Source: a virus
Lineage: Duplodnaviria; Caudoviricetes
IMG/VR virus record: IMGVR_UViG_2895427314_000002
Span: 27,646 to 91,645 of that record
Reading direction: 5' to 3' (one strand)
Length of the DNA stretch: 64,000 bases
In this document: positions 2,181 through 61,546 of the stretch, piece by piece
Layout of the letters: each line of letters opens with the position of its first letter
Position numbering within the stretch: the first letter of the stretch is position 1
Notes under the pieces: generated by a model
Seen by the model: the letters and a program-made list of their open reading frames with translations, nothing else
Databases searched by the model: none
What the model was told of the DNA's origin: nothing
Program-made: the position numbers and the translations under genes

Positions 2181-2395
2181 AAACCCCATCCGACGTCGCC
2201 GACGACGCTCGTTGGCGGAAACGCCAACGACCACGCATGCCGGACCGGCCACGCGCCGCCGTCTGGAACGGCGACCGCACCCGCCCGGTCGCCGTCGTCG
2301 AGGGCCGCCACCTGACCGCCGCCGACCTCGACGCCGCACGGCGACTGGCCACCCAGCCGAACATCCACCACCGCCACACCAGCTTCCAGGAGTAG
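2177..2395 (+). CDS. hypothetical protein
   Basis: GAAGGA RBS, GTGA overlap. Confidence 0.55.
   Translation: MKTPSDVADDARWRKRQRPRMPDRPRAAVWNGDRTRPVAVVEGRHLTAADLDAARRLATQPNIHHRHTSFQE
2211..2228. promoter_or_regulatory. 18-bp dispersed palindrome copy GTTGGCGGAAACGCCAAC
   Basis: One mismatch to GTTGGCGG-N2-CCGCCAAC. Confidence 0.7.
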
Positions 2396-2398
2396 GAG

Positions 2399-2710
2399 AT
2401 GACCACCACCACGCCGGTCGCCGTCCTCACCGAGGAACTGGCACGCCCCGACCCAACCCCGCGCCGTCTGCTGCGGGCGCTGCGCACCGCCGGGTTCGAG
2501 ATCAAGGCGGCACAGCCCCCGGCGTGGATGCCCAGCACGCCGGAGGCGCAGCACCTGGTCGAGCGGGCCGCCCAGCTCGCCCGGCAGGGCCAAGCACGCG
2601 ACGAGATCGCGGCGTGCCTGCGCAAGGACAAGCGAACGATCAACCGCTATCTGGCCGCCGCCGACGTGCTCGGCCTGCTCAGCCCCGACACGGAGGAGCC
2701 GCCGGAATGA
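2399..2710 (+). CDS. helix-turn-helix DNA-binding protein
   Basis: RDEIAACLRKDKRTINRYL HTH pattern. Confidence 0.75.
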   Translation: MTTTTPVAVLTEELARPDPTPRRLLRALRTAGFEIKAAQPPAWMPSTPEAQHLVERAAQLARQGQARDEIAACLRKDKRTINRYLAAADVLGLLSPDTEEPPE

Positions 2711-3081
2711 GCCGCTACCGCACCGCCCTTGACCTGCGCGCCACCGGCTCGGTGAACATACCGCAAGCGCCCTCGTGGCATCGAGACGCCGCCTGCCTCC
2801 GCGTAGGGCACGACCTATTCTTCGGCCCGGCCTCGGACCTGCCGCGCGAACTGCGCGAGACCACTGAGGAGAAGGTCGCACGCGAGGCTCGCGCCCGCGC
2901 GATGTGCCGCGGTTGCCCCGTCCGGCGGAACTGCCACGTCTACATCCACAGCTTCCCCATCGGCGACCAGGTCGGCATCTGGGCCGACACCGACCAGGAC
3001 GAGCGGCGCGTCGAGCGCCGCAAGAACCAGCGCAAGACCGCTGCCGCCCGGCGGCGGCGCGCAGAAGGGACAGCGCCGTGA
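2707..3081 (+). CDS. WhiB-family Fe-S transcription factor
   Basis: W..DAAC...LFFG...CRGCPVRRNC...GIWA; four Cys. Confidence 0.92.
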   Translation: MSRYRTALDLRATGSVNIPQAPSWHRDAACLRVGHDLFFGPASDLPRELRETTEEKVAREARARAMCRGCPVRRNCHVYIHSFPIGDQVGIWADTDQDERRVERRKNQRKTAAARRRRAEGTAP

Positions 3082-3395
3082 GCACCCGAGCCGACGCCCA
3101 GATGAGGGCCATCGACGAGGCCGCCGAGGTTCTGGCCAAGCGCATGCGCGAGTGGGCGGCGACGCCCGCTGACGAGCGTGAGGCGGTCGAGGTGTTCACG
3201 CGCCGCTTCATGCTCGACCTGAACGGGCACGGCTGGCGGCTCACGCCGGCTGCCCGGGTCAACCCGCTCGCGCGCAGGAGCGCCGCCGACCCTGCCGCGG
3301 CGGCGCAGCGGGGCGCCGCACTCGCCTTTGCTGAGCTCGCGAAGGTGATGGAGAAGCGAGCCGTGATCAGCCAGGCCGAGGGAGACGAGGAGTGA
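3078..3395 (+). CDS. hypothetical protein
   Basis: Coupled ORF in operon. Confidence 0.65.
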   Translation: MSTRADAQMRAIDEAAEVLAKRMREWAATPADEREAVEVFTRRFMLDLNGHGWRLTPAARVNPLARRSAADPAAAAQRGAALAFAELAKVMEKRAVISQAEGDEE

Positions 3396-3937
3396 GCCCG
3401 GCCAGGCCCGCGCACGAGCAGCCCGGCCACACTCCGGCGACCGTGCCGTACGACGAGTACGGCAACCTGCTGTCCACCACCGCGGGCGTGGACCCTGACC
3501 GCATCACCTGGCGGCCTCCGCACCCGTTCACCCAACCGCTCCACCTCCATGACGCTCGCGCGCTGCGCGGCATCACCCGGCCCGTGACGTGGAAGGACCC
3601 GCACGGGCCCGCCACGTTCCCGATGTTCGCCGACGACCTCGCCCGCGTCATCAAGGGGACGATCAGCGACCACGGGCTCGTCGTCGGCGCCACGTGGGTG
3701 CCGCTCGTCCGCCGCGATCGATATGGCATCTCCCTGAAGACCTTCCACGAGCAGGAAGAACCCGCCGCCGAACGCGAGCTGCCGGCGAGCCCGGCTGAGG
3801 AGGCCGCGGCCCGCTTTATCGACCGCGAGCACGTCGTCCAGCTCGTGCGCGTCGCCTTCTCCATGGGCGAGCCCGAGGCGGACCTTCCGCCGGACCTGAC
3901 CACCCTGATCCGCCACATCAGAGAGGACCAGCCATGA
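3392..3937 (+). CDS. hypothetical protein
   Basis: GAGGAG RBS, coupled. Confidence 0.7.
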   Translation: MSPARPAHEQPGHTPATVPYDEYGNLLSTTAGVDPDRITWRPPHPFTQPLHLHDARALRGITRPVTWKDPHGPATFPMFADDLARVIKGTISDHGLVVGATWVPLVRRDRYGISLKTFHEQEEPAAERELPASPAEEAAARFIDREHVVQLVRVAFSMGEPEADLPPDLTTLIRHIREDQP

Positions 3938-4233
3938 CAACGCGCCACGAAACGCTCCGCAGGCTCCCGCCGGGGGCACACACCCTGCTCAAGACGATCG
4001 CCGAACACGACGACGGCGACGGCGTCATGTTCGACCCGGCCCCGTACGGCCGGTGGACGCTGCGCGGCTCCGACTACGCCGTCAACCGCAGCACGTTCCA
4101 CACCCTCGCCGTGGCCCGCGGCTTCATCGACGTCGGCGACGGGTTCACCAACCCCGTGCGCATCACTCAGGCCGGGCGCGACTACCTCGACCACCACCAG
4201 AGCCGAACCGCCAGGAAGGACCGCCAGCAGTGA
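3934..4233 (+). CDS. winged-helix-like hypothetical protein
   Basis: GFI...VRITQAGRDYL wing motif. Confidence 0.6.
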   Translation: MTTRHETLRRLPPGAHTLLKTIAEHDDGDGVMFDPAPYGRWTLRGSDYAVNRSTFHTLAVARGFIDVGDGFTNPVRITQAGRDYLDHHQSRTARKDRQQ

Positions 4234-4861: not shown

Positions 4862-5322
4862 CCGAGCAGAACATTCCCCAGCCGTACGACCCACTCGCCG
4901 TCTCACACGCCAAGCAGGCCATCACTGCCGCCCTCCACGAAGACGACGACACCACGGCCCAACTCGTCGCCACGATCGTGAACGAGACCGGCCTGCCCGG
5001 CATCCTCGATGCCGTCTTTGTGTGGTGCGCAACCATCCACGCCCGCATCGGGCTCCCGTTCGGCGTCATACTCACCCTCACCTACATCCACCCGGAGACC
5101 GGGGAACCGATCCCCGAGACGGAGGCAGACCCCGCGCTCATCTGGGCCAGCCACGTCATCCAGGCCTACGTGGCCCGCGACAAGCCCCGGTTCGACAGTC
5201 TGCTCAAGGACATGCTGGACGGCGATCCCGGACGGCTCGCCGCCCAGCTCATCACGATGGTCGAGCACGTGGCCGCGCACATCAGGCTCGCCAGCCTGCG
5301 CAGCACAGCGGAGCTGTCGTGA
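4858..5322 (+). CDS. hypothetical protein
   Basis: Coupled ORF. Confidence 0.7.
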   Translation: MTEQNIPQPYDPLAVSHAKQAITAALHEDDDTTAQLVATIVNETGLPGILDAVFVWCATIHARIGLPFGVILTLTYIHPETGEPIPETEADPALIWASHVIQAYVARDKPRFDSLLKDMLDGDPGRLAAQLITMVEHVAAHIRLASLRSTAELS

Positions 5323-7079
5323 CGCACCATGTCGTCCAGATGAGCGGCGGCCTGGGATCGTTCTGGGCCGCCGTCTTCGCCGTCCTGGTATACGGCAAGG
5401 AGAACGTCGTCCTTCTGTTCGCCGACACCCTGTGGGAACACCCCGACACGTACCGCTTCCTAGGGCAGGCCAGCGAACACCTCGACATCACCCCGATCAT
5501 CGTGTGCGACGGCCGCAACCCGTTCCAGGTGTATTTCGACCAGCACTTCCTCGGAAACTCCCGGATCGCGCCGTGCACGAAGGAACTCAAGCAGAAGCCC
5601 TGCCGCCGCTGGCTGGAGGAGCACTGCGACCCGGCCGACACCATCCTGTACGTCGGCCTCGACGCGGCCGAGGAGCGCCGCCGGCCCGGCGTCATCAAGG
5701 GATGGACGCCGTGGCGAGTCGAGTTCCCCCTGATGGACGACAAGACCTGGGACAAGAAGCGGATGAAGACCGAGTGCGCCAAGCTCGGCATCACCATCCC
5801 CCGCATGTACGAACTGGGGTTCTCCCACAACAACTGCTTGCACCCGGACACCCGCTACATCACGAGCGAGGGCATCAAGACCCTCCGCGAGACGTGCGGA
5901 CAGACCGTCAAGGTCCTGGGCCGCGGCGGCGGCTGGCGGGAGGCGGAGATCCGGTCGTTCGGCGAGCAGCCCACTTACGAGCTGCGGCTGCGACGGTACG
6001 ACGACGAGATGACCGTCATCACCACGGGGGACCATCTCTGGCCTGTGCGCAAGCGGGCTGGACGGAACGCCCACGAGTTCCGGCACACGCTCGTGCTCAG
6101 TGCAGGAGACCGCATCGCGGGCATGTATGGCCACGTCCGGAGCAACGTGGTGCCGTCCACGATCGGCATCATGGCCGGGTTCACCTTCGGCGACGGCACC
6201 GCTCCCGCCGTCAACGGGCAGAACCAGCCGGCCCGCGCCTATCTGTGTGGCGACAAGGACAAGGCGATGCTGCCGTACTTCGCGGGCTGCCGGATCAAGG
6301 AGGACAGACCCCGTGTCCTGAAGGTCCTGGACCTGCCGAGGTCGTGGAAGCAACCCCCGCCGCTGGAGGAATCCCAGTCGTACCTGTACGGATGGCTGGC
6401 CGGGTACTTCGCCGCTGACGGCAGCATGAGCGGCGGCAGCGCGGTCATCTACTCGGCGAACCAAGCCCGGCTCGAGACCGTGCAAGATGTGGCGGCCAGG
6501 ATTGGCATCGCGACGGGCCGCATCCGCACCGCGCACCGGACCGGGTACAACACCGAGCGGAGCCCGATCTACAGCGTGACGCTGGTGATGGCCACGCTCC
6601 GGGAGGACTTCTTCCTCCTGCCCCACCACCGGGAGAAGTTCCTCGCCCGCGAGAATCCCCAACGACCAGGTGACTGGCAAGTGGTCGAGGTCGTCCCCAC
6701 CGGGCGTGTCGAGGAGGTCATGTGCGCGGTCGTCCCTGACGGCCACGTGTTCACCCTCGACGGCAACCTGCTCACGCACAACTGCCAGGGCAGCTGTGTC
6801 CGGGCGGGACAGGCTCAGTGGCTTCTCACGCTCCGCGAGTTCCCGGAGCGGTACGCCCTGGCCGAGGCCGAGGAGCAGCGCTTCCGCGAGGAGCACGGCA
6901 AGGACGTGTCGATCCTCACCGAAACCGTGAACGGCGCGAAGTGCACGCTCACGCTCAGGAAGCTGCGGCTGCGCGCGGAGGTGGGCGTGATCCGTCTCCT
7001 CGCGCCTGGATCTGTTCAGCGCCGTCGTCACATGACCGTGAAGACAGAGCCGTTGTTCGAGATGGGGTGCCCGGCATGA
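5319..7079 (+). CDS. PAPS-reductase/PP-loop family protein interrupted by an intein
   Basis: SGGLGS PP-loop, FADTLWE, CTKELK, GFSHNN|CQGSCVRAG. Confidence 0.85.
   Translation: MTHHVVQMSGGLGSFWAAVFAVLVYGKENVVLLFADTLWEHPDTYRFLGQASEHLDITPIIVCDGRNPFQVYFDQHFLGNSRIAPCTKELKQKPCRRWLEEHCDPADTILYVGLDAAEERRRPGVIKGWTPWRVEFPLMDDKTWDKKRMKTECAKLGITIPRMYELGFSHNNCLHPDTRYITSEGIKTLRETCGQTVKVLGRGGGWREAEIRSFGEQPTYELRLRRYDDEMTVITTGDHLWPVRKRAGRNAHEFRHTLVLSAGDRIAGMYGHVRSNVVPSTIGIMAGFTFGDGTAPAVNGQNQPARAYLCGDKDKAMLPYFAGCRIKEDRPRVLKVLDLPRSWKQPPPLEESQSYLYGWLAGYFAADGSMSGGSAVIYSANQARLETVQDVAARIGIATGRIRTAHRTGYNTERSPIYSVTLVMATLREDFFLLPHHREKFLARENPQRPGDWQVVEVVPTGRVEEVMCAVVPDGHVFTLDGNLLTHNCQGSCVRAGQAQWLLTLREFPERYALAEAEEQRFREEHGKDVSILTETVNGAKCTLTLRKLRLRAEVGVIRLLAPGSVQRRRHMTVKTEPLFEMGCPA
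5835..6782 (+). mobile_element. Intein (316 aa) with LAGLIDADG homing endonuclease
   Basis: Starts CLHPDT, TTGDHLW block B, IMAGFTFGDG and WLAGYFAADGS motifs, ends LLTHN followed by Cys. Confidence 0.93.
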
Positions 7080-9416: not shown

Positions 9417-10050
9417 GCACACGCCACCGCCCGCCGACCGGCTCGCCGAAATCCGAGACCTCCACGTGGGCTCCTGCACCGCCGACGCCCCGCACAACCC
9501 CGACGTGTGGGCACTGGAGAGCGCTCGTAAGGACCTGCTCGCCGAGGTGGACCGCCTCAACAAGGCAGTGGAGATCCTGGGCACGGCGTTGCAGATCGAC
9601 TCCCTGACCGTCATCGACGAACTCAAGCGACACGCCGGGGACGCCTGCCTCCCGATCGAGGACGTGGAGCGCTTCCTCAAGCGGGAGCGCGACGAGTACG
9701 AGGCGCGCGGGCAGGACTGGAACACCGTGGACAACGTGCTGGACTGCTTCCGCCTTCACATGGTCACCGGCACGCCGCTGACCGAACCGAGACCGGAGGA
9801 AGGCCCCAGCGACCCGAGCGTTGGCCGCCCGGGACTGACCGAGGCCGAGGAACTCCACGCCGAACTGGCCCGCGTCAAGGCGGAGCACGAGCGCGAGATG
9901 CTCAAGGTCATCGACGAGCGTGACCAGATGCACGACCTGCTCGACACGTTCGCCTACCGTGTCGCCCCCGTGGAGAAGATCGGGGAGCACTCCAGCGGCA
10001 ACGACCCGTGGCAGAACGCCCTCGAGCTGCTCACGCCACACCAGCCATGA
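9409..10050 (+). CDS. coiled-coil hypothetical protein
   Basis: Coupled ORF, heptad-rich. Confidence 0.7.
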   Translation: MHEHTPPPADRLAEIRDLHVGSCTADAPHNPDVWALESARKDLLAEVDRLNKAVEILGTALQIDSLTVIDELKRHAGDACLPIEDVERFLKRERDEYEARGQDWNTVDNVLDCFRLHMVTGTPLTEPRPEEGPSDPSVGRPGLTEAEELHAELARVKAEHEREMLKVIDERDQMHDLLDTFAYRVAPVEKIGEHSSGNDPWQNALELLTPHQP

Positions 10051-10080
10051 CCCCCACCATCACGAGAGATCGGAAACACG

Positions 10081-10554
10081 ATGACCGACCTCACCACTGC
10101 CATCGCCGCGCAGTACGTGCGCGGCCTGGAGCAGAACTTCGAGGACGCCGGAGACTGGGGTGTCCAGCCCACCCTCATACTGATCTGCACGTACACCAAC
10201 CAGCACACGGTCGGCCCTGATCTGCTCGTCCCCGTTCCCGTCGTCCCCTCCGCGTGGATCAACGATGGGGAACTGCCCGCCGACGCCCTCGACCGCATCG
10301 ACCCGGCGGCGCTCTGTACCGCTGGGCAACCGGTGCTGACTCCGGTCGCCGTCGCGCTCGCTCATGAGGTGGTCGTCCTGTCGGGCAAGGACGCGCGGCT
10401 GCTGTACTGCGGCCTCGCGGACGGCACTCTCGTCGGCGCCGGCCGGGTGCGCGGCGACGCGCCGAACGTGAAGGTGTATCCGCCGGACCACGAGCATGAT
10501 GTCACCCCGGCCGCGGTCCGCCGCCTGGCCATGGTGGTCCTCGGAGGCTCGTGA
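10081..10554 (+). CDS. hypothetical protein
   Basis: 157-aa ORF with typical codon bias. Confidence 0.7.
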   Translation: MTDLTTAIAAQYVRGLEQNFEDAGDWGVQPTLILICTYTNQHTVGPDLLVPVPVVPSAWINDGELPADALDRIDPAALCTAGQPVLTPVAVALAHEVVVLSGKDARLLYCGLADGTLVGAGRVRGDAPNVKVYPPDHEHDVTPAAVRRLAMVVLGGS

Positions 10555-10559
10555 CGCTT

Positions 10560-10577
10560 GTTGGCGGTACCGCTTAC
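10560..10577. promoter_or_regulatory. 18-bp palindrome copy GTTGGCGGTACCGCTTAC
   Basis: Two mismatches; intergenic, upstream of the initiator-like gene. Confidence 0.6.
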
Positions 10578-10641
10578 GGTGGGGGCTCACCCATTCCCTC
10601 AATGGGGCGAGCCCCCATCGCCGTGTCTGAGGGAGGATCGG

Positions 10642-11046
10642 GTGAGCGCACGCCTGTTCGGGCTGGTCGCCGCGTGGCTGGAAACTGCGGCTGCGGACGG
10701 CATGACCCAGTCCGAGCGGCTCGTGCTGCTGCTCATCGCGGAGCGGGCCCGGGACACCGATCGGCGCATGGTGTCGTTCCGGGCGGACCGGCGTGACGAC
10801 GGCACGAAGATCACGCTGACGGAGCTGCTGCAGGCGCGGGCCGGGCTGACGCCGCGCGGGCTGGCCGACACGGTGCAGCGCCTGGCACGGCGTGGCCTGG
10901 AAGTGCGGGTGCCGGTCGGCAAGGACCGCAACGGCGTGATCATGTACGCGCGTCGCGGCCACGCGACGGACTACCGGCTGCCGGATCTGCCTGCCTCGGT
11001 GAGCCTTCCTGAGCCACCGGCACGGCGCGGCTCACGCGCCTCCTGA
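10642..11046 (+). CDS. HTH replication-initiator-like protein (short or truncated)
   Basis: ERLVLLLIAERA...LARRGL..G.ATDYRLP winged-HTH pattern; GGAGG RBS; iterons directly downstream. Confidence 0.65.
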   Translation: MSARLFGLVAAWLETAAADGMTQSERLVLLLIAERARDTDRRMVSFRADRRDDGTKITLTELLQARAGLTPRGLADTVQRLARRGLEVRVPVGKDRNGVIMYARRGHATDYRLPDLPASVSLPEPPARRGSRAS

Positions 11047-11048
11047 CC

Positions 11049-11267
11049 TGTGGATAACCACCACCGAAACGATCACCAGCGGCGCGTTAGGTCACGTCTG
11101 GACGTGACCCGCACGGGTCACGTCCCAGCGTGACCCGCAGGTCACGTCCCAGCGTGACCCATGTCCCTACATATGTCCCTACAAAACCTCTATCCCTATG
11201 GCTCTGGCTGAGGTCCACACACCTACAGGTGGAAGTGCGAAGATCACCGCCGTGAGCCTGTGGACAA
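11049..11267. other. Putative replication origin: two DnaA boxes flanking three 20-bp iterons
   Basis: TGTGGATAA 11049-11057; TGTGGACAA 11259-11267; GGTCACG-N6-CGTGACC at 11090, 11116, 11140; ATGTCCCTACA twice at 11161-11183. Confidence 0.7.
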
Positions 11268-11752
11268 GCAGAGCCAGTGATCAGCCGCACGAGGACGACC
11301 AGGCAGGCGGGGGCGCTCGTCGTCCTCGTCGCTGACTGCTTGTCCCGTCGCGGACCGCACCGGCGACGCGAGAGACGCGCGAGCAGTGCGCCGCGATTCG
11401 CTCGGAATGGCCATCATGGTGGACGGTGAGCGCCTTACACGCCATGCCTGGCACGGAGAGACCAGGCCACCGCCAGAGCCGCTGAGAAGCGCTCACAGAC
11501 AAGATCCATAAGGAGGCGCAGAGAACACAGCAGCCGCCAGCATGCCGTTGGGGTCGGTGGTGTTCGATTCTCGCGTGTCAGCTTTGGTTGACGTCTAGAG
11601 GTTTTGTCGTGTCCGTAATCGAGACCGGTTTTTGGTCTTTCTGCTGGTCGTGTGGTGGCGGGTCATCGCTGGTTGACGGTCTGGGGCTCCAGCTCCGTAA
11701 CGGTGCGATCTCGGTGTTGTCCGAAAACTAGACCCTCTGTTATGCGCAAAAC

Positions 11753-12565
11753 ATGCTCGGCGGCATGCAGATCACACGTACGGCCAAGGCGCTCGGGAGC
11801 GCGGTAGGAACCGCCGCTCTCGCCGCGTCCATGGTCATCACAGCGGGTCACATGGGGGCGCTCACTGCCTCCCGCGTGGCCGATCCCACCATCATGGCCA
11901 CGTGCCCCGACCAGGATCCCCCGGTCGTGTGCATCGTCGGCCCCCAGGGCCCGCAGGGTCCGGCAGGCGAGCCGGGACCGCAGGGCCCCCAGGGTGAGCA
12001 GGGCCCCGCAGGGCCGACCGGACCCGCAGGCCCGACCGGGCAGCAGGGCCCCACTGGACCCGCAGGAAGCGCGGGCCCGACCGGTCCGCGCGGAGAGCAG
12101 GGCCCCCAGGGACCGCAGGGGCCCGCCGGAGCTACCGGCGCGGCGGGCGCGTCCGGACGTCCCGGCACCACCGGGCCGACCGGTCCCAGCGGAGCGGCGG
12201 GCAGCCCCGGACCTACCGGACCGCGCGGCGGGCAGGGACTTCCCGGACAGCCCGGCATGCCGGGCACCGCGCCGGAGTCATCTTCCGTCACGCGGGAAGA
12301 CGTGCCCCCGTTCGAGGAGGCATCGGAGACGCCCTCCACCATCCCCACGGCGGACATGTCCCCGGACACCTCCGACACGGCCAACGCCGCCAAGGCGGAG
12401 AACTCCGCCGAGTGGGACACCGGACGGTACCTGATCGGCGTGCTCGGGCTCATCCTGCTCACGGTCGCGATCGTGTGCATCGTGATCTACCGTCGCCGTC
12501 AGCGTGCACATGACGAGTGGTCCCGCACTTTCGTTGGCGGTTCCGCCAACGACAACGACGAGTAA
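11753..12565 (+). CDS. collagen-like surface protein (signal peptide, G-X-Y repeats, C-terminal TM anchor)
   Basis: Long uninterrupted GXY run; hydrophobic helix followed by RRRQR. Confidence 0.85.
12533..12550. promoter_or_regulatory. 18-bp palindrome copy GTTGGCGGTTCCGCCAAC
   Basis: Perfect match. Confidence 0.8.
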
Positions 12566-12624
12566 CCAGCCCTTCCGCCCCGGCTCGCAGGGAGCCGGGG
12601 CACCCAACCCGAAAGGACCCAGTA

Positions 12625-13251
12625 ATGGCCAGCAAGAACACCCCCGCCACCCCCGCGATCAGCCTGCCCGACGCCGTGCGCGCCGCGCTCGTGGAGATCG
12701 ACGGGGCGATCACCGGCCACACCGGTAACAACCTCGTAGAGAACGCCTACCGTCACCAGGGCTTCCGCCTCAGCCTCGCGGAGGTCATGGACTGGTTGGC
12801 CGCCGGACTCCGGATCTACGACGGCCCCAGCCGCACGGAGTTCGCCGCCATGGGCAAGGTCACCAACGAGCAGCGCGCCGCGTGGTACCACATCCCGGAC
12901 CGCGCCGGAGCAGGGGCGCGCGTCGCCGCGACCCTCTCCCGGTACGGACTCGCCGAGGATCACCCCGTCACGCTCGCCCCCGGACAGTCCGAGGTCAAGG
13001 CCGCGCTCGGGTCCGCCGAGCCCCTCGCGAAGCTCGCGGAGATCCACGCGGAAGCGGCCAAGAAGGAAGCCGAGCGGATCAAGGCCGAGCGTGAGCAGCG
13101 GATCAAGGACGCGGTCAAGACCGCTAAGGCCGTCGCTGATTTCGGCGGTGACCCCGCCCTGGTCTGGGCGAAGGCCATCGAGCAGGGAGCGGACGCCGCC
13201 GACCTCCGGCAGGCGTTCACCAACGCCGGATTGACCCCGCCCGCCGCGTAG
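12625..13251 (+). CDS. hypothetical protein
   Basis: GAAAGGA RBS preceded by a hairpin. Confidence 0.8.
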   Translation: MASKNTPATPAISLPDAVRAALVEIDGAITGHTGNNLVENAYRHQGFRLSLAEVMDWLAAGLRIYDGPSRTEFAAMGKVTNEQRAAWYHIPDRAGAGARVAATLSRYGLAEDHPVTLAPGQSEVKAALGSAEPLAKLAEIHAEAAKKEAERIKAEREQRIKDAVKTAKAVADFGGDPALVWAKAIEQGADAADLRQAFTNAGLTPPAA

Positions 13252-13327
13252 CAGCACAGCGCGCCCCCCGCGCCGCCACGCGCGGGGAGCGCACCCCACC
13301 ACCACCGACGATCCGAAAGGGGAGATC

Positions 13328-14026
13328 ATGACCACCCTGCAAGACCTTGCCGTCAGGTCCGCCGCCGCCGTCCGGCTGGGCGCCGCCGACCGCGCCCGGC
13401 ACGCGGAGCTGTGCGCCATGTGCCGCCCGGACCAGGAATGCCCCCGCGCCGCCGAGATGTTCACCGATCATCAGGCGCGCGTGCAGCGCTCCCGCTCCAA
13501 CCTCCTGGCGTACCTGCCGCGTACGTCCATGATCACCTACGCCGGGAAGGTCCGCAACCTGCACGGCGAATGGTGGGTCGCGGACACGTGCGCGGACTGT
13601 GATCACACCGCGTACCGGCTCACCCGCCCGCGCGGCATGGCCATGCGGCACGCGCACCTGTCCGAGATCAGCAGCGCGCCCGTGCTCCACCCCGGAGCCG
13701 GTGAGGCGCTGGCACCCGCCCGCGAGGCCGCCCGCGAGGCTGCCGCGATCCTGGCCATGTGCGGGATCGTGGTCCCCATCATCGTGGACATCAACGGGCT
13801 GGGCGCGTGCACGTTCGCCTACCCGCGCGCCACCTGGGAACACGAGCTGAGCGTCGCGGAGACCGCCGACACCGTCGAAGGGTCCTACGCGGCGGCGACG
13901 CTGCGCACCTTCCCCGACCTGGCCACCGCCACCAGCCGGGGCAACGCCCTCGGGATTCACCGCATGTCGCGCGTGCTGGACAAGCTCCGCGCCGCCGCCC
14001 AGGACACGCGCGGCAAGAGCAACTAG
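13328..14026 (+). CDS. hypothetical protein with CxxC motifs
   Basis: GAAAGGGGAG RBS; CAMC, CADC. Confidence 0.8.
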   Translation: MTTLQDLAVRSAAAVRLGAADRARHAELCAMCRPDQECPRAAEMFTDHQARVQRSRSNLLAYLPRTSMITYAGKVRNLHGEWWVADTCADCDHTAYRLTRPRGMAMRHAHLSEISSAPVLHPGAGEALAPAREAAREAAAILAMCGIVVPIIVDINGLGACTFAYPRATWEHELSVAETADTVEGSYAAATLRTFPDLATATSRGNALGIHRMSRVLDKLRAAAQDTRGKSN

Positions 14027-14040
14027 CTCCCCGCCGACCG

Positions 14041-14068
14041 GCCCCCGCGCGACCCCGCGCGGGGGCTT
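14041..14068 (+). terminator. hairpin terminator candidate
   Basis: GCCCCCGCGCG-accc-CGCGCGGGGGC-tt after the stop codon. Confidence 0.55.
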
Positions 14069-14216
14069 CCCCATGTCCAAGATCACCCCCGGTACCCCCT
14101 CCCCGCCGGTCCGGCCGTGGTGCCTTGCTTGTGTTGATCCGGATTGGTTTTGATCTTGCCGGTTGGTCGTAGGGTGTCCGAGTCTCATCGGGTGCGGCGG
14201 CCGGGAAGGGGTCGGG

Positions 14217-14978
14217 ATGGCGGATGGAGTGTGCGTGGGGCCGTGCAACAGGCATGCTCGCGCGGCGTGGTCTGCGTTCCTGGCGGCGCGGGAGGCGCAC
14301 GCGGATGCGGTGGACCGCTGGGTGGCGGACGGTGCGCGGGGCGAGCCGCCGCCCGAGCCTCCCATGCCGGTCCTGCAGTGGCGGCCGGGGGAGCCGCTGC
14401 ACTGCGGGCTCTGCCGGGAGACGTGCCGTCGTGCGCTGCTGCTGGTGGACGAGCTGGCCGCGAGCCTGGCGGCGCGGCCGGGCGTGGTGAAGGCGCAAAC
14501 CCGCTGGTCGCGGGTGAAGGGAACCAGGCCGCACGGCAGCATGTCGGGGGAGGGCGACGTCGTGCACACGGTGACGGGGGAGCTGCTGCGCCTGCGCCGG
14601 GAGGTGGCCCGCCGTCTGAAGCTGGCCGACCAGGTGCCCGCCGGCCGGTCGGGAGTGGTGCGGTCCCGGTCGGTCACGTGGCTGGTGGACAAGCTGGACG
14701 TGCTGCTCGCCCTCGACGGGCTCACGGTGCTGTCGAGCGTCGAGGACGAGGAGCGCGCCCCGGTGGAGCTCGGCCCGGTGGACTGGGCTCTCGCCTGGGA
14801 ATCCCGGCTGCGGCGCCTGGTGGACGACGAGCCCGGCCAGACACACGCGCGCTGCCCCGGATGCGGCCTACGGGAGCTGGAGTGGCAGCCGCGGGCCGGC
14901 TATTACGTGTGCGGGAACTGCTCCCGCCACGTCGGCGAGGCCGAGGCGATGGAAGCGGTCACGCAGGAGGCAGGGTGA
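14217..14978 (+). CDS. Zn-ribbon protein, possible transcription regulator
   Basis: CVGPC, CGLC, CPGC, CGNC motifs. Confidence 0.7.
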   Translation: MADGVCVGPCNRHARAAWSAFLAAREAHADAVDRWVADGARGEPPPEPPMPVLQWRPGEPLHCGLCRETCRRALLLVDELAASLAARPGVVKAQTRWSRVKGTRPHGSMSGEGDVVHTVTGELLRLRREVARRLKLADQVPAGRSGVVRSRSVTWLVDKLDVLLALDGLTVLSSVEDEERAPVELGPVDWALAWESRLRRLVDDEPGQTHARCPGCGLRELEWQPRAGYYVCGNCSRHVGEAEAMEAVTQEAG

Positions 14979-15050
14979 CTCAGTCCCGTGGTGGGACGGC
15001 ACAAGCTAATGGCCCCGCCGTGGGACGGGGCCCTCAGGCGGCTCATCCGA

Positions 15051-15485
15051 TCACTTGAGGATGATCTTATCGACCTTGTTGTTCCAGTCGGCCAGGTTGC
15101 TCAGATACTTCACATCGCCGAGATCCGGGATGAGCTGACCAGCGGGGACGGGCAGCGTGACATCGGGAACGACTCCGCTCCGGGAATCGACCAGAGTCAC
15201 GCTGGCGTTACGCCTGTTCCAGACGCTGCTGATCCGATCCCGCCAGCCGACGCCGCCCAGTTCCATGGTCCCGGCCGACTTGCGTGAATACCTGTCGCCT
15301 TGGCGGTTGGGATACTCCCAGACGCAGAGCCATCCGGGGGTGCACTCGCTCAAGTCGGCCACGACGACCACCCCGGACGTCTGGGGGGTTGGGCCCGTGA
15401 CTGCTTCGGCGGTGGCCGGTGTGGTCAGCATGGCGGCACCGGCCACGGCGGTAAGCAGGGCGGTTGTGTAGCGCTTGAATCGCAC
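15051..15485 (-). CDS. secreted peptidase-inhibitor I36 / beta-gamma-crystallin-like protein
   Basis: Signal peptide; CTPGWLCVWE..N..G and DRISSVWN motifs; GAGGAG RBS. Confidence 0.8.
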   Translation of the reverse strand: MRFKRYTTALLTAVAGAAMLTTPATAEAVTGPTPQTSGVVVVADLSECTPGWLCVWEYPNRQGDRYSRKSAGTMELGGVGWRDRISSVWNRRNASVTLVDSRSGVVPDVTLPVPAGQLIPDLGDVKYLSNLADWNNKVDKIILK

Positions 15486-15696
15486 GGTACTTCTCCTCTT
15501 GTCGTTTTCGCATTGGCTCATGAGGCCTGCGCCGGAGCTTGTCTCAGCTCCGTGTTGGGCTTTCGGTGAATGAGAGTGATTCGACATCTCCCTGTGTGAT
15601 GGGGAGTGGTGGAATGTGACTCATGCCACTTCCGGCCCGGCGGTTGAGCAGGAGCAACATTGCGATGGACCCGTCGCGTGTGCTCGCAGAGGTGGA

Positions 15697-15975
15697 GTGG
15701 CGGCGGGGGCGTTCCTCGACCAGTACGAGCTGACCGTCCGGCTGAGGGACGAGGCCGCCGCCCGCATCCGTGCCGCTGGCGACCGCCCGGATGGCGGCGA
15801 CCTGACGAGGTGGGAGCAGGCGCACGACGAGGTGGCGGTGATGAAGCCGATCGTGCGGGAGATGGCCGCCCCGTACGTGAGGTTGCCGGGGTTGCCCGTG
15901 GCCGCCGCCGTGGCGCGCCCGGAGACGCTTCAGCGGGAAATCAGTGAGCGTGGCCAGTACGACGAGAGCGCGTAA
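15697..15975 (+). CDS. hypothetical protein
   Basis: ORF with GAGGTGGA RBS. Confidence 0.6.
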   Translation: MAAGAFLDQYELTVRLRDEAAARIRAAGDRPDGGDLTRWEQAHDEVAVMKPIVREMAAPYVRLPGLPVAAAVARPETLQREISERGQYDESA

Positions 15976-16050
15976 CCAACGTCTGACCTGCGTGTTTGTG
16001 AGGTTTCGGTGCGTGCCGCTCACGTGCGCCGCGCTTCGGCTACGCTGACG

Positions 16051-16231
16051 GCAGGCTTACCGCGTGCCTGCCTCCGAGCTGATCTCGCCTACGCCGAGAC
16101 ACAGCACCGACGAGGCGAAGGTCCCCGTGGATCGCGTACCCCGCTCGCCCTCGACGCTGCGTACGCGGCGGCCGGTGCTCGTGTCTTCGAGGTGGGGTGC
16201 GTAGGACCGCCACCTGGAAGGACACCCCCCC
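16051..16231 (+). ncRNA. candidate structured cis-regulatory RNA leader
   Basis: Nested complementary stems (see findings); TACGCT -10-like box at 16040-16045. Confidence 0.55.
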
Positions 16232-16923
16232 ATGACCCGCAACGCCGCCTGGAAGAACCGTGTCCGCGCCTACGCGGCCGAGAACGGCCTTTCGTACCAG
16301 CAGGCCCACGCCGCGCTCACAGCCCAGGCCCCCGCCGGCGCGGGCTTCACTGCCAACTCTGCCGAGTGGACGCAGGTCGGCGCAGGCCGCTACCTCATCG
16401 AGTTCGGCGACCACGGGCTCGGCGGCCACGAGATCGAGCCGTTCCACCTCGACATCACCGCACCGACGACCTGCGCGAGCAGCTCGGCGCGTTCGCGATG
16501 GGCCGGAGCTGGTTCGGGTTCTACATCGAGCTGGACGGTCTGGCCGGGAGGTTTCGGCTGGACGTCGAGCCCGGCAACGCGGACCTGCTCGGGACGTTCA
16601 CGCTCCGGCTCGACCCCGCCGACGAGGACGTGGTCGAGCTGCCCCGCTCGTTCTCTCACGACATGCACGAGCTGATCGACGCCGTGCAGAGCCGCTTCGA
16701 CTGCACCGTGGACGCCTTCACGTTCGTGCGTGGTGCCCGCGGTGGCGACGTCGAGTACGTGGGCCTCATCTACCGGGCAGGGACGGAGATGTTCCACCTG
16801 CTCCACATCGCGGACCACGACGGCGGCTGGCAGTACACGCTGTCCGGCGGGTGGCCGCTCGCCCGCGACGAGGAGGCCGTCGAGGCGTTCCAGGCGAAGA
16901 TCGCCGAGCACATCCACGCCTGA
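16232..16923 (+). pseudogene. frameshifted hypothetical gene (shift near 16460)
   Basis: N-half MTRNAAWKNRVRAY...HLDIT continues in another frame as TDDLREQLGAF...AEHIHA. Confidence 0.65.
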
Positions 16924-16937
16924 CCCCGGACATGAAC

Positions 16938-16971
16938 AGAGGCCCGCCGCGCTGAGCTCGCGACGGGCCTC
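16938..16971. terminator. bidirectional hairpin between convergent genes
   Basis: AGAGGCCCG...CGGGCCTCT. Confidence 0.6.
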
Positions 16972-16983
16972 TGAAGTGCGGGT

Positions 16984-17532
16984 CTACTCGACGGAGTGCA
17001 CGACCTCCGCGACGGGGCCGGCGGGCCGGAGCACGGCCTCGACGGCCTCCGGCGTCACGGAGGTCCCGTACTCGTCCGTCAGGATCTGGCTGATGGCGGC
17101 CGGGGTCCGTGAGGAGTCGTCACCGTAGGCGTCCAGGATCAGCTCGCAGGTGGTGTCGTCCAGGGCGGCGGCGGCCTCGTGGTCGGGCGTGACGGTGGAC
17201 TCGACCGGGTGGTCGTTGTGGCTGTGGTCGTTGTGCCCGGTCATGGTGGTGCTCCTCAGGACCTGCTCAGCGCCAGCCTTGACATCGGAGAGATCGTCGA
17301 GCGCGTGTCCGGCCTGCTCGATGGCGGCGGACAGCAGCACCGAGGTCACCGCCCCGGGCGTCACCTCCTCGTCGTCGGTGTCCAGCGTCTCGGCGATCTG
17401 GTCCGGGGTGAGAGTCGGGTCGGCCGCGGCCGTCTCGACGATGAGCTTGCGGGTCTCGTCGGACAGCGCGGCGGCGGCCTCGGGGTCGGAGTGGCCGATC
17501 GGGTCCGGCGTGTGATCGTTACGTGCGGACAT
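16984..17532 (-). CDS. acidic protein with an internally duplicated ~55-aa domain
   Basis: EAAAAL.D.T..LI...D...TP..I...L......VTP.AV..VL occurs twice; GAAAGG RBS. Confidence 0.75.
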   Translation of the reverse strand: MSARNDHTPDPIGHSDPEAAAALSDETRKLIVETAAADPTLTPDQIAETLDTDDEEVTPGAVTSVLLSAAIEQAGHALDDLSDVKAGAEQVLRSTTMTGHNDHSHNDHPVESTVTPDHEAAAALDDTTCELILDAYGDDSSRTPAAISQILTDEYGTSVTPEAVEAVLRPAGPVAEVVHSVE

Positions 17533-17586
17533 GAGTTCTGCCTTTCGCGAGGAGAGCTTTCGTGTCTCCGCCATCATGAGGGGCTT

Positions 17587-17639
17587 GTTGGCGGTTTCGC
17601 ACACGTTTCGCCAAACAGCGCGTTGGCGGGACCGCCAAC
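17587..17639. promoter_or_regulatory. two 18-bp palindrome copies (degenerate 17587-17604; perfect 17622-17639) between divergent genes
   Basis: GTTGGCGGTTTCGCACAC and GTTGGCGGGACCGCCAAC. Confidence 0.75.
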
Positions 17640-17857
17640 GGTTGTGCTCGCACGACCTTCTGTGTCACACTTCGTGCGGGCGGCACCCCTATGCCTATCG
17701 GCAGAGCCCCCGACCTGCCCGTATACGAGTCGTGATGCTGAGCGCGTCTCTGGCAGGGCGTGTGCCGCCCCCACCTCCTCCTATGCGGCCGGTCGCGTTC
17801 GCGCGTCTACGGCCGCCTCAGCGCGTCGATCATTCCGGGCGAAACCAGCGAAAGTGG

Positions 17858-18100
17858 GTGAACGTGACCCCCGTGACCGCCCGCCAGGCCGCCGAACGAC
17901 TCGAACGGGAGCCGTGCACGATCCGCCAGTGGGCGCACCGCTACAAGGTGCGCGCCCTCGGCCGCGCCGGACGCGAGACCGTGTACGACTACGGGGACCT
18001 GGCCACGATCGAATGGTGCATCTGGGACGGCCAGGAGGTCCCGGCCACGCCGGAGGACCGCGACGAGCTTCGTGCCGCTCGCCGAGAAACCGCCACGTGA
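17858..18100 (+). CDS. MerR/excisionase-type HTH protein
   Basis: TARQAAERLER.PCTIRQWA.RY...YDYGDL. Confidence 0.75.
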   Translation: MNVTPVTARQAAERLEREPCTIRQWAHRYKVRALGRAGRETVYDYGDLATIEWCIWDGQEVPATPEDRDELRAARRETAT

Positions 18101-18102
18101 TC

Positions 18103-18279
18103 TCAGTCTGCGGGAATCTCCTCAAGGTGTACGAGGTAGGTGGTCCCATCCGCCAACTGGACGGTGAACTCCTCCTCGACACCGTTAAGGTGTGCGACGT
18201 CGGAGCAGTGCACCACCCAGTCGATCTGCAGGGCACTCTCGTGGAGCTTCTGGGAGAGGAAGGAGAGATACCAGACCAT
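18103..18279 (-). CDS. small acidic hypothetical protein (58 aa, absent from ORF track)
   Basis: MVWYLSFLSQKLHE...LEEIPAD; GAGAGGA RBS. Confidence 0.6.
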   Translation of the reverse strand: MVWYLSFLSQKLHESALQIDWVVHCSDVAHLNGVEEEFTVQLADGTTYLVHLEEIPAD

Positions 18280-18414
18280 GGCTGATCCTCTCAGAACTCA
18301 CGAGTGTCGCGCCGGGCACGAGTAGGCTTGATCAGCAGGACCGTCGTGCATGGCACCTCGATGTCGTCGCTCATGCTCCGATCCTCCCACCGGCCCGGCC
18401 GCGCTGTCCTTGCC

Positions 18415-18531
18415 TCACCGCAGCAGAGCGACGACGACGGGCACACTCACCGTCAATACGATCACGCATAAGCGCAGCGTCGTGCCCCAGCACTTGATCG
18501 CTTCTCGCAAGATCTGGGTGCTGACCTGCAT
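18415..18531 (-). CDS. 38-aa membrane peptide
   Basis: MQVSTQILREAIKCWGTTLRLCVIVLTVSVPVVVALLR; GAGGAGG RBS. Confidence 0.55.
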   Translation of the reverse strand: MQVSTQILREAIKCWGTTLRLCVIVLTVSVPVVVALLR

Positions 18532-18645
18532 GGCTTCCTCCTCAGCTCGGGGGGTGGATGCCTCCAGCGTGGCAACCGCCGGTAGAGGTGTGATGGGTGC
18601 TCGGTTGTGCGGTCCGGTATAGGTTCCTGAACGAAAGGCCCCCTT

Positions 18646-18870
18646 ATGGAGATCCGACCGCGCGTCCGCATCGTCGGCGCCGAACGCCACCAGCTCGCTC
18701 AGCACCTGGCCAGCCGCTACCAGGCGGGGGAATCCGTCCGCGCGCTCTCCCTCGCGATCGGCCGATCGTACGGGTTCGTCCACACGCTGCTGGAGGAGGC
18801 GAGCGTCGAGCTGCGCCACCGCGGCGGCAACCAGCGCAGCCGGCCCGCGGCGGCCGGGGCAGCGAAGTGA
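18646..18870 (+). CDS. small actinobacterial HTH protein
   Basis: YQAGESVRALS..IGRSYGFVH.LL.EA.V.LR.RGG. Confidence 0.85.
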   Translation: MEIRPRVRIVGAERHQLAQHLASRYQAGESVRALSLAIGRSYGFVHTLLEEASVELRHRGGNQRSRPAAAGAAK

Positions 18871-19022
18871 CGCCCGCCGAGATCGCCGCCACGAAGGCGG
18901 CAGAGCTGCTGGACAAGGCCGAGGAATACATCCTCGACGAGGGGGCCGTGAAGAACTGCGTGGCCATCGCGGACGGCTGGATGCGGCTGCACCTGGCTAT
19001 CACGACCGGTGCTGTCAGGTGA
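18867..19022 (+). CDS. small protein whose 3' end was replaced by the element insertion
   Basis: Removing the element restores ...ITTGAIMRFSPD* (stop at 20386-20388). Confidence 0.6.
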   Translation: MTPAEIAATKAAELLDKAEEYILDEGAVKNCVAIADGWMRLHLAITTGAVR

Positions 19023-19208
19023 CGCGGCATCTGGCCGCGTGCCAACCAAAGTGGCCAAACAATTGGCCGCTGCCATCGGAAGTGGCCAGCGCGGTAGCCG
19101 AGCGTACGGAATGGACCTTCGCCGTGGGAGTGCATGACTTCCGCCCTGACGCTACGTAGAGTAATCTTTTCCTGACTTTCGGTTGCTCTACGTACAGGAG
19201 ACAATGCC

Positions 19209-19589: not shown

Positions 19590-19742
19590 CCGAACTCCCC
19601 GCCGACAGCAGGCAGGGCTTGCAGGCGCGCACAGCTCCGACGCGCCACCGCGTTGGGAGCTGTGCGCGCTACTTGGGCGATGGCTGCTTCTCGCAATCGC
19701 GATTGACCGTAAGTCACCCCGAGAAGAGGAAGGAAACTCTCC

Positions 19743-20656: not shown

Positions 20657-20667
20657 CAGACCTCCTC

Positions 20668-23440: not shown

Positions 23441-23451
23441 GGAGACACGAA

Positions 23452-23478: not shown

Positions 23479-23494
23479 AGGTGTGCAGGGCCGG

Positions 23495-44759: not shown

Positions 44760-44777
44760 GTTGGCGGTCCTGCCAAC
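44760..44777. promoter_or_regulatory. 18-bp palindrome copy GTTGGCGGTCCTGCCAAC
   Basis: One mismatch; between scaffold and capsid genes. Confidence 0.75.
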
Positions 44778-49234: not shown

Positions 49235-49252
49235 GTTGGCGGTACCGCCAGC
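49235..49252. promoter_or_regulatory. 18-bp palindrome copy GTTGGCGGTACCGCCAGC
   Basis: One mismatch; upstream of the tape measure gene. Confidence 0.75.
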
Positions 49253-59883: not shown

Positions 59884-60057
59884 ATGCCCCAGCCCTCGCC
59901 CGAGCCGATCGATGTCCTCGACGGCCAGGATCCACTCCCGATGCCGCCGTTCGCCGACGCGAGCACGACCGTGCTCGACCCCAGCCAGGACGGGCTGCCC
60001 CAGGACCCCGGCAGCACCATCGACGACGAGGAGGAGGTGACCACGCATGACGGTTGA
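59884..60057 (+). CDS. small acidic protein
   Basis: AAGGAG RBS. Confidence 0.55.
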   Translation: MPQPSPEPIDVLDGQDPLPMPPFADASTTVLDPSQDGLPQDPGSTIDDEEEVTTHDG

Positions 60058-60316
60058 CCGGCTGCCCATGACCTGCGACATCGTCCGCTATCGCGGCCAA
60101 CATGGTCTCCAGGCTGTCCGAGCGGCAGTCGTGGTAGCCGACGTGCACACTCTCGACCCCGCCGGAGTGCGGTCGGGGACGGTCCCCGCGCTCGACAGCC
60201 CCGAGCATGTTCATCTGCTGGTGTTCACTCCTGGGGCGCGCGGCTCGTTCTGGGAGTTCAACGTGCCGCCCGGCGACGGACCCGGCGCGTGGCACTGGCC
60301 GCCGGAGCGCTCATGA
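60047..60316 (+). CDS. phage hypothetical protein
   Basis: IVRY...RAAVV...VHL.VF.P...GAWHWP pattern. Confidence 0.75.
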   Translation: MTVDRLPMTCDIVRYRGQHGLQAVRAAVVVADVHTLDPAGVRSGTVPALDSPEHVHLLVFTPGARGSFWEFNVPPGDGPGAWHWPPERS

Positions 60317-61092
60317 TAGCCAAGACGTCAGCGAAGCCCGCCGATCGGCTCCTGGCCGTCGTGCGCTCCCAGCTCGGGGAGACCGAGTCGCCGACCGGGT
60401 GGACGAAGTACGGCTCCTGGTGGGCGAAGCGGCACGACAAGTCGGCCGCCTGGGCGGTGGCCGCTTGGTGCGACATGTTCCTGGCCTGGTGTGCCGCGCA
60501 GGCCGGGCTCATCGCCGTCGTCGGGGATCACGCCTACACGCCGTCTCACGCCGCCTGGTTCAAGGACCGAGGCCAGTGGGGGCACACACCCCGGCGCGGC
60601 GCGATCGTGTTCTTCGACTGGGGCGGCACCCGCGACATCAAGGCGATCGACCACGTCGGCATCGTCGAGGCCGTCCGCGACGGTGGCCGGACCATCGTGA
60701 CGATTGAGGGCAACACCGAGAACCGCGTCATGCGCCGAGTGCGCTCGCTGGCGAACGTGGCCGGGTTCGGCTACCCCGCCTACCTGCCCGAGCCGGCCAC
60801 GCCGAAGCCTCCCGCCGCTCCGGCACTCACCTGGACGGAGACGATGATGAAGGAACTGCCCACGCTGCGGCGCGGCGACGGCAAGGACCCCAACGACCCG
60901 GCCCGGTGGGACGTCAAGACGGTCTTTTACCTGCTGCACGCCCGCGGCTTCGGCGTGGGCGGCGGCGTGGACGACACCGTGTTCGGCGCCGCGCTGGAGG
61001 ACGCGGTTCGCTCCTTCCAGCGCCACGCCGGTCTCAAGGTGGACGGCGTGGTTGGGCCGAAGACGTGGCCCGCGCTCGTCCGCGTGTCCTAA
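60313..61092 (+). CDS. endolysin (CHAP domain plus peptidoglycan-binding domain)
   Basis: WCDMF..W, IDHVGIVE, TIEGNT; FQ...GLKVDGVVGPKTW. Confidence 0.93.
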   Translation: MIAKTSAKPADRLLAVVRSQLGETESPTGWTKYGSWWAKRHDKSAAWAVAAWCDMFLAWCAAQAGLIAVVGDHAYTPSHAAWFKDRGQWGHTPRRGAIVFFDWGGTRDIKAIDHVGIVEAVRDGGRTIVTIEGNTENRVMRRVRSLANVAGFGYPAYLPEPATPKPPAAPALTWTETMMKELPTLRRGDGKDPNDPARWDVKTVFYLLHARGFGVGGGVDDTVFGAALEDAVRSFQRHAGLKVDGVVGPKTWPALVRVS

Positions 61093-61109
61093 CACCGCGA
61101 GGAGTGATC

Positions 61110-61520
61110 ATGCTCAGGTTCGTGTCCACCGTGCTCGCCGCCCTCGTCGCCGTGCTGCTCGCGGCCGGGCTCGGCGGAGCCGTCGCGCTGGCGGCGGCCG
61201 AGCCGAAGGCCCTCGGCTTCTGCGCCAAGCAGACCGGCGGCGCGCTCCGCCTGCTGGAGCCGAAGAACATCGCCAAGTCGCAGTGGGGCAAGTGCAAGTC
61301 CGGCGAGACCCGCGTGCAGCTCCCCACCACTGCGGCCAAGGGCCCCAAGGGCGACACCGGCCCGGCCGGACCGAAGGGCGACACCGGCGCCCCCGGCAAG
61401 GACGGCAAGGACGGGCGCAGCTTCGACGGCGCCCCCTTCACCATGACGTTCACCGGCAACGGCCCCTGGAAGTGCACCTGGAAGGCCGACACCGCCACGC
61501 TCGCCTGCGTCACCCCTTAA
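61110..61520 (+). CDS. secreted protein with short collagen repeat
   Basis: Signal peptide; GPKGDTG repeats; four Cys. Confidence 0.78.
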   Translation: MLRFVSTVLAALVAVLLAAGLGGAVALAAAEPKALGFCAKQTGGALRLLEPKNIAKSQWGKCKSGETRVQLPTTAAKGPKGDTGPAGPKGDTGAPGKDGKDGRSFDGAPFTMTFTGNGPWKCTWKADTATLACVTP

Positions 61521-61528
61521 CCCCTCTC

Positions 61529-61546
61529 GTTGGCGTGAACGCCAAC
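61529..61546. promoter_or_regulatory. 18-bp palindrome variant GTTGGCGTGAACGCCAAC
   Basis: Perfect arms with a symmetric G>T / C>A change; upstream of the holin. Confidence 0.72.

Follow-up and report, generated by a model that had tools for sequence, protein, structure and literature searches.

Why does one short palindrome recur at so many places in the DNA of a temperate phage? The stretch considered here, called the window, comprises 64,000 nucleotides and corresponds to bases 27646–91645 of the 91,645-bp IMG/VR provirus record IMGVR_UViG_2895427314_000002, which has a G+C content of about 69% and belongs to a temperate phage of Nonomuraea with a genome of approximately 105 kb. The original prediction, made from the window alone, listed 11 copies of an 18-bp palindrome and proposed that they form either a genome-wide silencing network or a distributed centromere. 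The palindrome is symmetric, specific to the phage, conserved in position, and located at gene boundaries. Its sequence and placement make it somewhat probable that the copies are dispersed operators, at which silencing would be of the roadblock type.

Architecture and phage specificity of the palindrome

The pattern GTTGGCGG-NN-CCGCCAAC has three exact matches in the window (12533, 17622, and 25536), with none expected from 100 dinucleotide-preserving shuffles. When up to three mismatches are allowed, there are 12 matches, against 0.93 expected from the shuffles. These include all 11 copies listed previously, and the additional three-mismatch match at 40456 is probably due to chance. A scan of the whole record, in which coordinates are given as genome positions, identified the invariant core of the motif as GTTGGCG-N4-CGCCAAC (7-4-7). 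The record contains 11 perfect copies of the core and 18 copies with at most two mismatches; seven of the 18 precede the window, at genome positions 2315, 2827, 9583, 14779, 15605, 15865, and 24250.

The full unit, as defined by a logo of 73 sites from five related genomes, is the 22-bp dyad tCGTTGGCGG-WW-CCGCCAACGa, which reaches outward to tC...Ga beyond the 18-mer described originally. The information content of the logo is mirror-symmetric over the 22 bp and drops to the background level directly outside. The centres of the half-sites are 11 bp apart, which corresponds to one helical turn. Conservation drops to about 75% at positions 8 and 11 of the 18-mer, and the copy at 61529 carries T...A at these two positions, which confirms the symmetric double change reported there. 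Among 110 sites, the central two nucleotides are AA in 34, TT in 38, TA in 19, and AT in none. The centre thus does not vary freely, contrary to the original description.

The distribution of perfect 7-4-7 copies was determined in ten Nonomuraea genomes of 10–14 Mb each. The copies are nearly confined to the phage contig or contigs (4 of 4, 10 of 10, 11 of 12, 7 of 7, and 7 of 8), and there are zero to one copies outside phage DNA per genome. In two fragmented assemblies, the perfect copies are located on small contigs or contig ends that bear phage genes, and two of the three stray copies examined adjoin genes of related phages. The density of the motif in the phage is approximately 1000 times that in the host, and therefore the palindrome is not a host repeat; the comparison of phage and host densities suggested with the original prediction clearly favours a phage-specific element. 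A repetitive extragenic palindrome (REP) of the host was rejected because of the zero to one perfect copies outside phage DNA, and a box for a host transcription factor because the motif is absent from the host chromosomes. In Nonomuraea assemblies, the motif is also a sensitive indicator of this phage clade.

Exact 18-mers also occur in Mycobacterium, Tsukamurella, and a metagenome-assembled genome of Actinomycetota (L158, L165, L168, L170, L184, L194, and L208). These have a GGATCC centre, which is never found in the phage, form part of a larger conserved repeat with GTGGCGGA-type sequences on its flanks, and appear to belong to a different repeated or mobile element. Exact 18-mers in Solirubrobacterales are within coding sequence. 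A literature search for the 16-mer and for 8-mers returned nothing relevant.

The hosts of the phage and its relatives were named by an exact-motif scan of GTDB genomes. A search of IMG/VR with the major head protein identified six relatives, exact-pattern scans of IMG/VR returned singletons with the exception of one relative, and a megablast of a 16-kb structural segment against INPHARED gave no match to sequenced phages. The clade of large temperate phages of Nonomuraea is previously undescribed. Its members, from at least eight Nonomuraea isolates, are collinear, mutually circularly permuted, and about 80% identical in DNA sequence. Stand-alone contigs of 103–113 kb were found in N. wenchangensis (G002), Nonomuraea sp. 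NPDC050202, MG754425, and NPDC050786. The G002 contig (106,863 bp) is indicated to be circular by a terminal overlap of 95 bp. The copy in NPDC049141 (G012) sits within a 753-kb contig and is thus embedded in a large replicon, and fragments of relatives are present in SYSU D8015 and N. basaltis. The window's record is a trimmed piece of such an element: on either side it ends in phage genes that have orthologues in the relatives, and it lacks about 15–20 kb of G002. PHROGs profiles confirm terL, portal, major head protein, tape measure, endolysin, and holin genes in the window, and the phage also encodes RecT- and YqaJ-type recombination proteins. The distant capsid relatives G005 and G016, which have only structural genes in common with the phage, contain no repeated palindrome, and G003 has just two degenerate copies within 35 kb. 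Contigs G013c and G014c proved to be a remnant and a chance match.

Placement at gene junctions and nature of the site

The relatives carry 10–21 copies each (at most two mismatches). The sites are kept at orthologous gene boundaries in G001, G002, G008p, G009p, G012, and a relative in N. angiospora, while the intergenic surroundings diverge and the remainder of each gap can often barely be aligned. The shared junctions are those before the genes at the Cro and terS positions and the head, tape-measure, and holin genes, the junction after a 157-amino-acid gene, and the 5' end of a 72-amino-acid open reading frame (ORF). PHROGs assignments bore out the gene context described originally, with sites preceding the terS-position, major head, tape measure, and holin genes. 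Copies that overlap coding ends pin the encoded peptide: RWR(K/N)RQ is retained near the N-terminus of the 72-amino-acid protein, and a C-terminal VGGSxN is fixed in an otherwise very divergent protein. In the N. angiospora relative, the protein at the CI position is 57% identical, and the same motif occurs in the same places. Judged from these sequence comparisons, the palindrome is under strong selection.

Within five genomes that are 87–89% coding, 62 of the 73 sites lie at most 45 nt from a gene boundary. Five of the other 11 represent the conserved copy about 34 nt into the 72-amino-acid ORF, and four a one-mismatch copy in the 5' part of a ribbon-helix-helix gene. According to our own gene calls, eight rather than nine of the 11 copies in the window are strictly intergenic, and the other three overlap the ends of genes, falling within the first or the last ~15 codons. 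Enrichment is strongest in divergent gaps, 16 of 62 of which carry a site, compared with 41 of 565 plus-plus junctions, and in the divergent gaps the site adjoins the plus-strand gene. Many copies are just 14–19 nt from a start codon, and others close plus-strand blocks that face convergent genes (genome 14779 and window 29387). The sites thus occupy leaders, internal junctions, and block ends in both early and late regions, as is described for the stoperators of cluster A mycobacteriophages and R4-like Streptomyces phages, which favours silencing by roadblock.

The same placement bears on the idea of a selfish or recombinogenic repeat, similar to REP sequences or miniature inverted-repeat transposable elements or serving as a boundary sequence for module exchange, that would have no regulatory role. 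Such a repeat could account for copies that mark the borders of functional modules, for sites that are present in some relatives and absent in others, as is the one before gene 25597, and would have the RecT- and YqaJ-type proteins of the phage at hand. Most copies, however, are stably orthologous and under strong purifying selection, coding ends included, they have neither target-site duplications nor flanking element sequence, and the gene order is collinear among the relatives, which together make this explanation highly improbable. The collinear gene order also ruled out a recombinase site.

We found no conserved hexamer or −10 element at any fixed distance from the site in a logo alignment of five genomes. 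Since, in addition, many copies are 14–19 nt from start codons, the site is not part of a promoter, and a promoter or activator site was rejected on these grounds. A scan for consensus promoters and terminators in 10001–30000 gave results at or below the shuffle level. The one case in which a promoter can be placed is upstream of the Cro-position gene, where GTGACA-17-TAGGCT is conserved in five genomes about 95 nt upstream of the palindrome, and the palindrome thus falls within the transcribed leader. This promoter has its own 14-bp inverted repeat, GTGTCGCGAGACAC, which overlaps its start region between the CI- and Cro-position genes (genome 24100–24200) and recurs in the divergent gap of the ribbon-helix-helix gene (genome 15750–15775). 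Repeated AAGATC/GATCTTG blocks are found near this second operator.

The sequence features favour a double-stranded DNA site for a dimer over an RNA hairpin. A site bound by a dimeric protein, as originally suggested, is supported by the symmetric 22-bp logo, the 11-bp spacing of the half-sites, and the strand-neutral AA/TT centre. The alternative is a hairpin with a stem of 7–9 bp and a 4-nt loop in polycistronic lytic transcripts, which would serve in transcript processing, stabilise 3' ends, signal pausing or termination, or be recognised by a phage RNA-binding protein that adjusts the translation of the next gene. Most copies are indeed 2–39 nt past a stop codon and 12–47 nt ahead of the following start codon, immediately 5' of the Shine-Dalgarno sequence. 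The predicted RNA folding energies of good copies are −10 to −15.5 kcal/mol, the copy ahead of the Cro-position gene belongs to a transcribed leader, one orthologous copy in G001 that has lost the two central base pairs can still form the hairpin, and pairing is kept by two symmetric double changes in G002 (54288 and 103729). Nevertheless, it is the sequence of the stem itself that is conserved: 80 departures from the consensus in arm pairs were counted in the 110 sites, of which 76 break the pair and four are compensated, a count that is biased because the sites were chosen by their similarity to the consensus. The GC-rich terminator-like hairpins adjacent to the copies at 10560 and 12533, in contrast, evolve by compensatory substitutions among the relatives. 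Positions 7 and 10 (G and C, about 75% each), which would close the loop, are complementary, yet their pairing is only possible across a 2-nt loop and is not feasible. The AA and TT centres are used alike on both strands, although the GAAC and GUUC loops differ in RNA. The sites have neither an asymmetric flank nor a fixed distance to the Shine-Dalgarno sequence, and no match was found in Rfam at gathering thresholds. A function as an RNA hairpin is therefore rather unlikely, although the same palindromes might fold in lytic transcripts and have a second role there.

Of the two functions proposed originally, silencing is the better reading. We infer it from the position of the sites, and protein binding, repression by roadblock, and action in lysogeny are all parts of this interpretation. 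The operator would be bound by a phage-encoded protein, which may be a symmetric dimer or two units that contact the same face of the helix. Copies are located at the starts, ends, and internal junctions of plus-strand lytic blocks for recombination, replication, DNA modification, packaging, head, tail, and lysis, and in the transcribed leaders of operons leaving divergent regulatory regions. At these many points, the bound protein could block or occlude RNA polymerase, and the prophage of approximately 105 kb would remain silent. Such silencing would constitute a second, global tier of control beside the local CI/Cro-like switch with its distinct 14-bp operator.

Several observations weigh against silencing by roadblock. 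The candidate regulators are all equally conserved across the clade, and covariation with the motif singles out none of them. The site frequencies at plus-plus and minus-minus junctions do not differ significantly, and therefore a link to the lytic-strand genes is not proven. The predicted RNA folding of the good copies, and the hairpin retained by the shortened copy of G001, also belong on this side. Finally, the local CI/Cro-like promoter uses an operator other than the palindrome. In phage L5, one repressor serves both operators and stoperators, whereas here the early promoter has a different 14-bp operator, and the binder may thus not be the CI-position repressor.

It is possible, and we put it forward tentatively, that the phage has two-tier control in which the local CI/Cro-like switch is combined with a separate network of "stoperators", dimer-bound and without orientation, that marks off every functional module and extends even into coding ends. 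If this is true, genome-wide silencing of elongation was invented independently by a protein family without known relatives.

A distributed centromere, or KorB-like partition combined with silencing, in which a centromere-binding protein segregates an episomal prophage and may silence neighbouring genes, is very unlikely. Several relatives are stand-alone contigs of 103–113 kb, one of them circle-like, and G002 and G008p encode a ParA-type ATPase (PF13614, E 2.6e-34) downstream of the ribbon-helix-helix gene and followed by a helix-turn-helix (HTH) protein. However, PF13614 is found only in these two and is absent in G000, G001, G009p, and G012. Without ParA and its partner, G000, G009p (a complete 113-kb contig), and G012 keep 15–20 sites each, and G012 is embedded in the 753-kb contig. 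There is no match to PF02195 (ParB_N) in G000, G001, and G002. The ParB-like protein at 29890 is devoid of an HTH and resembles ParB-like nuclease-domain proteins of Gordonia phages, the genes for which are found at the end of the genome or next to that of an ATP-binding protein. Centromeres, moreover, would not be expected to be placed so precisely at gene junctions. The parS-type half of the original prediction was thus not upheld, given the confinement of ParA to two relatives, the persistence of the site network without it, and the lack of PF02195 matches.

The ParA module was compared between G002 (104788–106861, L136) and the window's record (genome 14776–15183). G002 and G008p have the ParA-type ATPase and its HTH partner and lack the tyrosine recombinase encoded at window 24458–25441, whereas the recombinase is present and ParA absent in G000, G001, and G009p. 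This pattern hints at a swap between partition and recombinase modules, with alternative episomal and integrated lifestyles.

Candidate binding proteins and individual copies

As the original prediction stated, the cognate protein cannot be identified from the window, and this holds even when the whole element and its relatives are considered. The motif never varies within the clade, not even where the CI-position protein is just 49–57% identical, so that covariation with a regulator gives no handle. The candidate binders include the CI-position protein itself, a clade-restricted protein of 168 amino acids (genome 23468–23974, minus strand). Its N-terminal ~110 residues are strongly conserved, and the family is confined to the clade (10 clusters in 5.8 billion proteins); a tblastn search against the INPHARED phages gave no match. 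Further candidates are a tandem ribbon-helix-helix protein (genome 15184–15687, minus strand), a GntR/XRE/GntR cluster, the first member of which is at the right end of the window (63245–64000), and the small HTH proteins at window 17858 and 18646, with MerR/Xis-like (17858) and HTH_58 proteins among the candidates. The GntR protein has only weak matches in phages. Searches of Pfam and PHROGs with the candidate regulators were mostly blank, and none of them showed homology to a known actinophage repressor.

The IMG/VR record is cut exactly at the start codon of the GntR/UTRA gene (window 63245–64000), which is conserved in the relatives and in G002 belongs to a minus-strand operon encoding GntR, XRE (444 amino acids), and GntR proteins. 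The ribbon-helix-helix gene contains a one-mismatch copy of the palindrome (GTTCGCG...CGCCAAC, genome 15605) about 80 nt inside the gene, which is conserved in every genome examined (G002:182, G008p, and G009p).

The first copy in the window (2211–2228) has a perfect 7-4-7 core, begins 30 nt past a RuvC-like gene, and lies within codons 12–17 of the conserved 72-amino-acid ORF (RWRKRQR); it is found at the orthologous place in five genomes. The copy at 10560–10577, with two mismatches, is 5 nt past a stop codon, is followed by a GC-rich terminator-like hairpin, and precedes a winged-helix gene at 10642; it has orthologues in G001 and G002. The perfect copy at 12533–12550 is embedded among the final codons (VGGSAND) of an ORF that is otherwise poorly conserved and is followed by the stop codon, a terminator-like hairpin, and a gene at 12625.

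Two copies 35 bp apart are located between 17587 and 17639. The first (17587–17604) has two mismatches in the 7-4-7 core, or three relative to the 18-mer described originally, overlaps the start of a minus-strand ORF (16984–17604), and is also present in G002 and G009p. The second (17622–17639) is perfect and lies at the 5' edge of a conserved leader of about 220 nt upstream of the MerR/Xis-like gene at 17858. This leader (window 17640–17860), which extends from the palindrome to the MerR/Xis-like gene, is highly conserved and has orthologues at L132:8155–8365, L139:2579–2800, L273:10519–10746, and L277:9719–9930. It contains an invariant long-range stem, GGGCGGCAC / GUGCCGCCC, and its consensus fold has a predicted energy of −52 kcal/mol; covariation is limited by the high similarity of the sequences. 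The leader could be a structured regulatory RNA.

The perfect copy at 25536–25553 occupies the divergent gap between the tyrosine recombinase gene on the minus strand and a plus-strand operon that starts at 25597, where, from the sequence, it could overlap a −35 element and spacer (TTGGCG-17-TACGAT). The copy at 29387–29404 has two mismatches and is 39 nt past the gene that ends a plus-strand block; a convergent minus-strand ORF follows.

The remaining copies in the window are associated with the packaging, structural, and lysis genes. The copy at 35082–35099 (one mismatch) is 2 nt past a stop codon and 26 nt before the terS-position gene (35126), which is directly upstream of terL; it is kept in G001, G002, G004, G008p, and G009p and is degenerate in G003. 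The copy at 44760–44777, with one mismatch of the G.T type, lies 8 nt past a scaffold-like gene, and the gene for the major head protein (44806) begins 28 nt further on. A further copy with one mismatch (49235–49252) separates a 68-amino-acid gene from the tape measure gene (49300). The last copy (61529–61546) is a perfect 7-4-7 core with the centre TGAA; a stop codon lies 8 nt ahead of it, and the holin gene (61562) begins 15 nt after it.

Two other genes of the phage have unusual domain compositions. The gene at window 5319–7079 encodes a PAPS-reductase-like protein with an inserted LAGLIDADG_3 domain (residues 358–412), which suggests an intein or a fused homing endonuclease. A 214-amino-acid protein (genome 9627–10271) has a region similar to the C-terminal domain of the RNA polymerase alpha subunit (PF03118, E 2.3e-5), and its gene is directly downstream of a copy of the palindrome and of a gene for a 662-amino-acid C5 cytosine methyltransferase.

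Comparison with known systems of dispersed sites

Short sites dispersed across large genetic elements are known from several systems. The RK2 KorB operators, N15 SopB centromeres, and P1 C1 operators are dispersed palindromic or repeated sites on a large episome that serve one global regulator, with RK2 KorB and N15 SopB using dispersed palindromes. These sites are at promoters or at set distances from them, or function in partition, whereas the sites described here are at cistron junctions and the network persists without ParA. Among actinophages, cluster K has start-associated sequences, short asymmetric repeats upstream of many start codons that include the ribosome-binding site, and cluster O has 17-bp intergenic palindromes that are reported to flank promoters. 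In contrast to both, the palindrome described here has no fixed relation to the Shine-Dalgarno sequence or to promoter hexamers.

Phage phiC31 contains a conserved inverted repeat (CIR) of about 17 bp, with highly conserved intergenic copies across the genome that are bound by the oligomeric repressor encoded by the c gene. The likeness is that of a dispersed intergenic inverted repeat in an actinophage.

The repressors of cluster A mycobacteriophages are described as halting elongation at many intergenic sites (PMC9283540), and the same is described for the R4-like phages of Streptomyces (PMC10276819); arrest of RNA polymerase at these sites is considered to maintain prophage silence. The stoperators of cluster A phages (L5, Bxb1, and TipsytheTRex) and of R4-like phages resemble the palindrome in that one short site is present in many copies throughout the genome, in the short gaps of lytic operons and near promoters. 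However, stoperators are asymmetric 13-mers that are read by a monomer and have one orientation relative to transcription, whereas the site described here is a symmetric 22-bp dyad without orientation. The phage is also about twice the size of the stoperator phages and, judged from the searches of INPHARED with the 16-kb structural segment and the CI-position protein, unrelated to them in sequence.

Dispersed repressor sites that stop elongation have so far been known from few actinophage groups, and those are asymmetric and read by a monomer. The palindrome most probably represents a symmetric variant of the dispersed-operator system in large phages of Nonomuraea. If so, finding the system in symmetric form in a much larger phage of unrelated sequence would mean that genome-wide silencing by roadblock arose more than once, and the compact 22-bp operator and its cognate protein would together provide a means of controlling genes in Nonomuraea and in related actinomycetes that produce antibiotics, for which few genetic tools are available.

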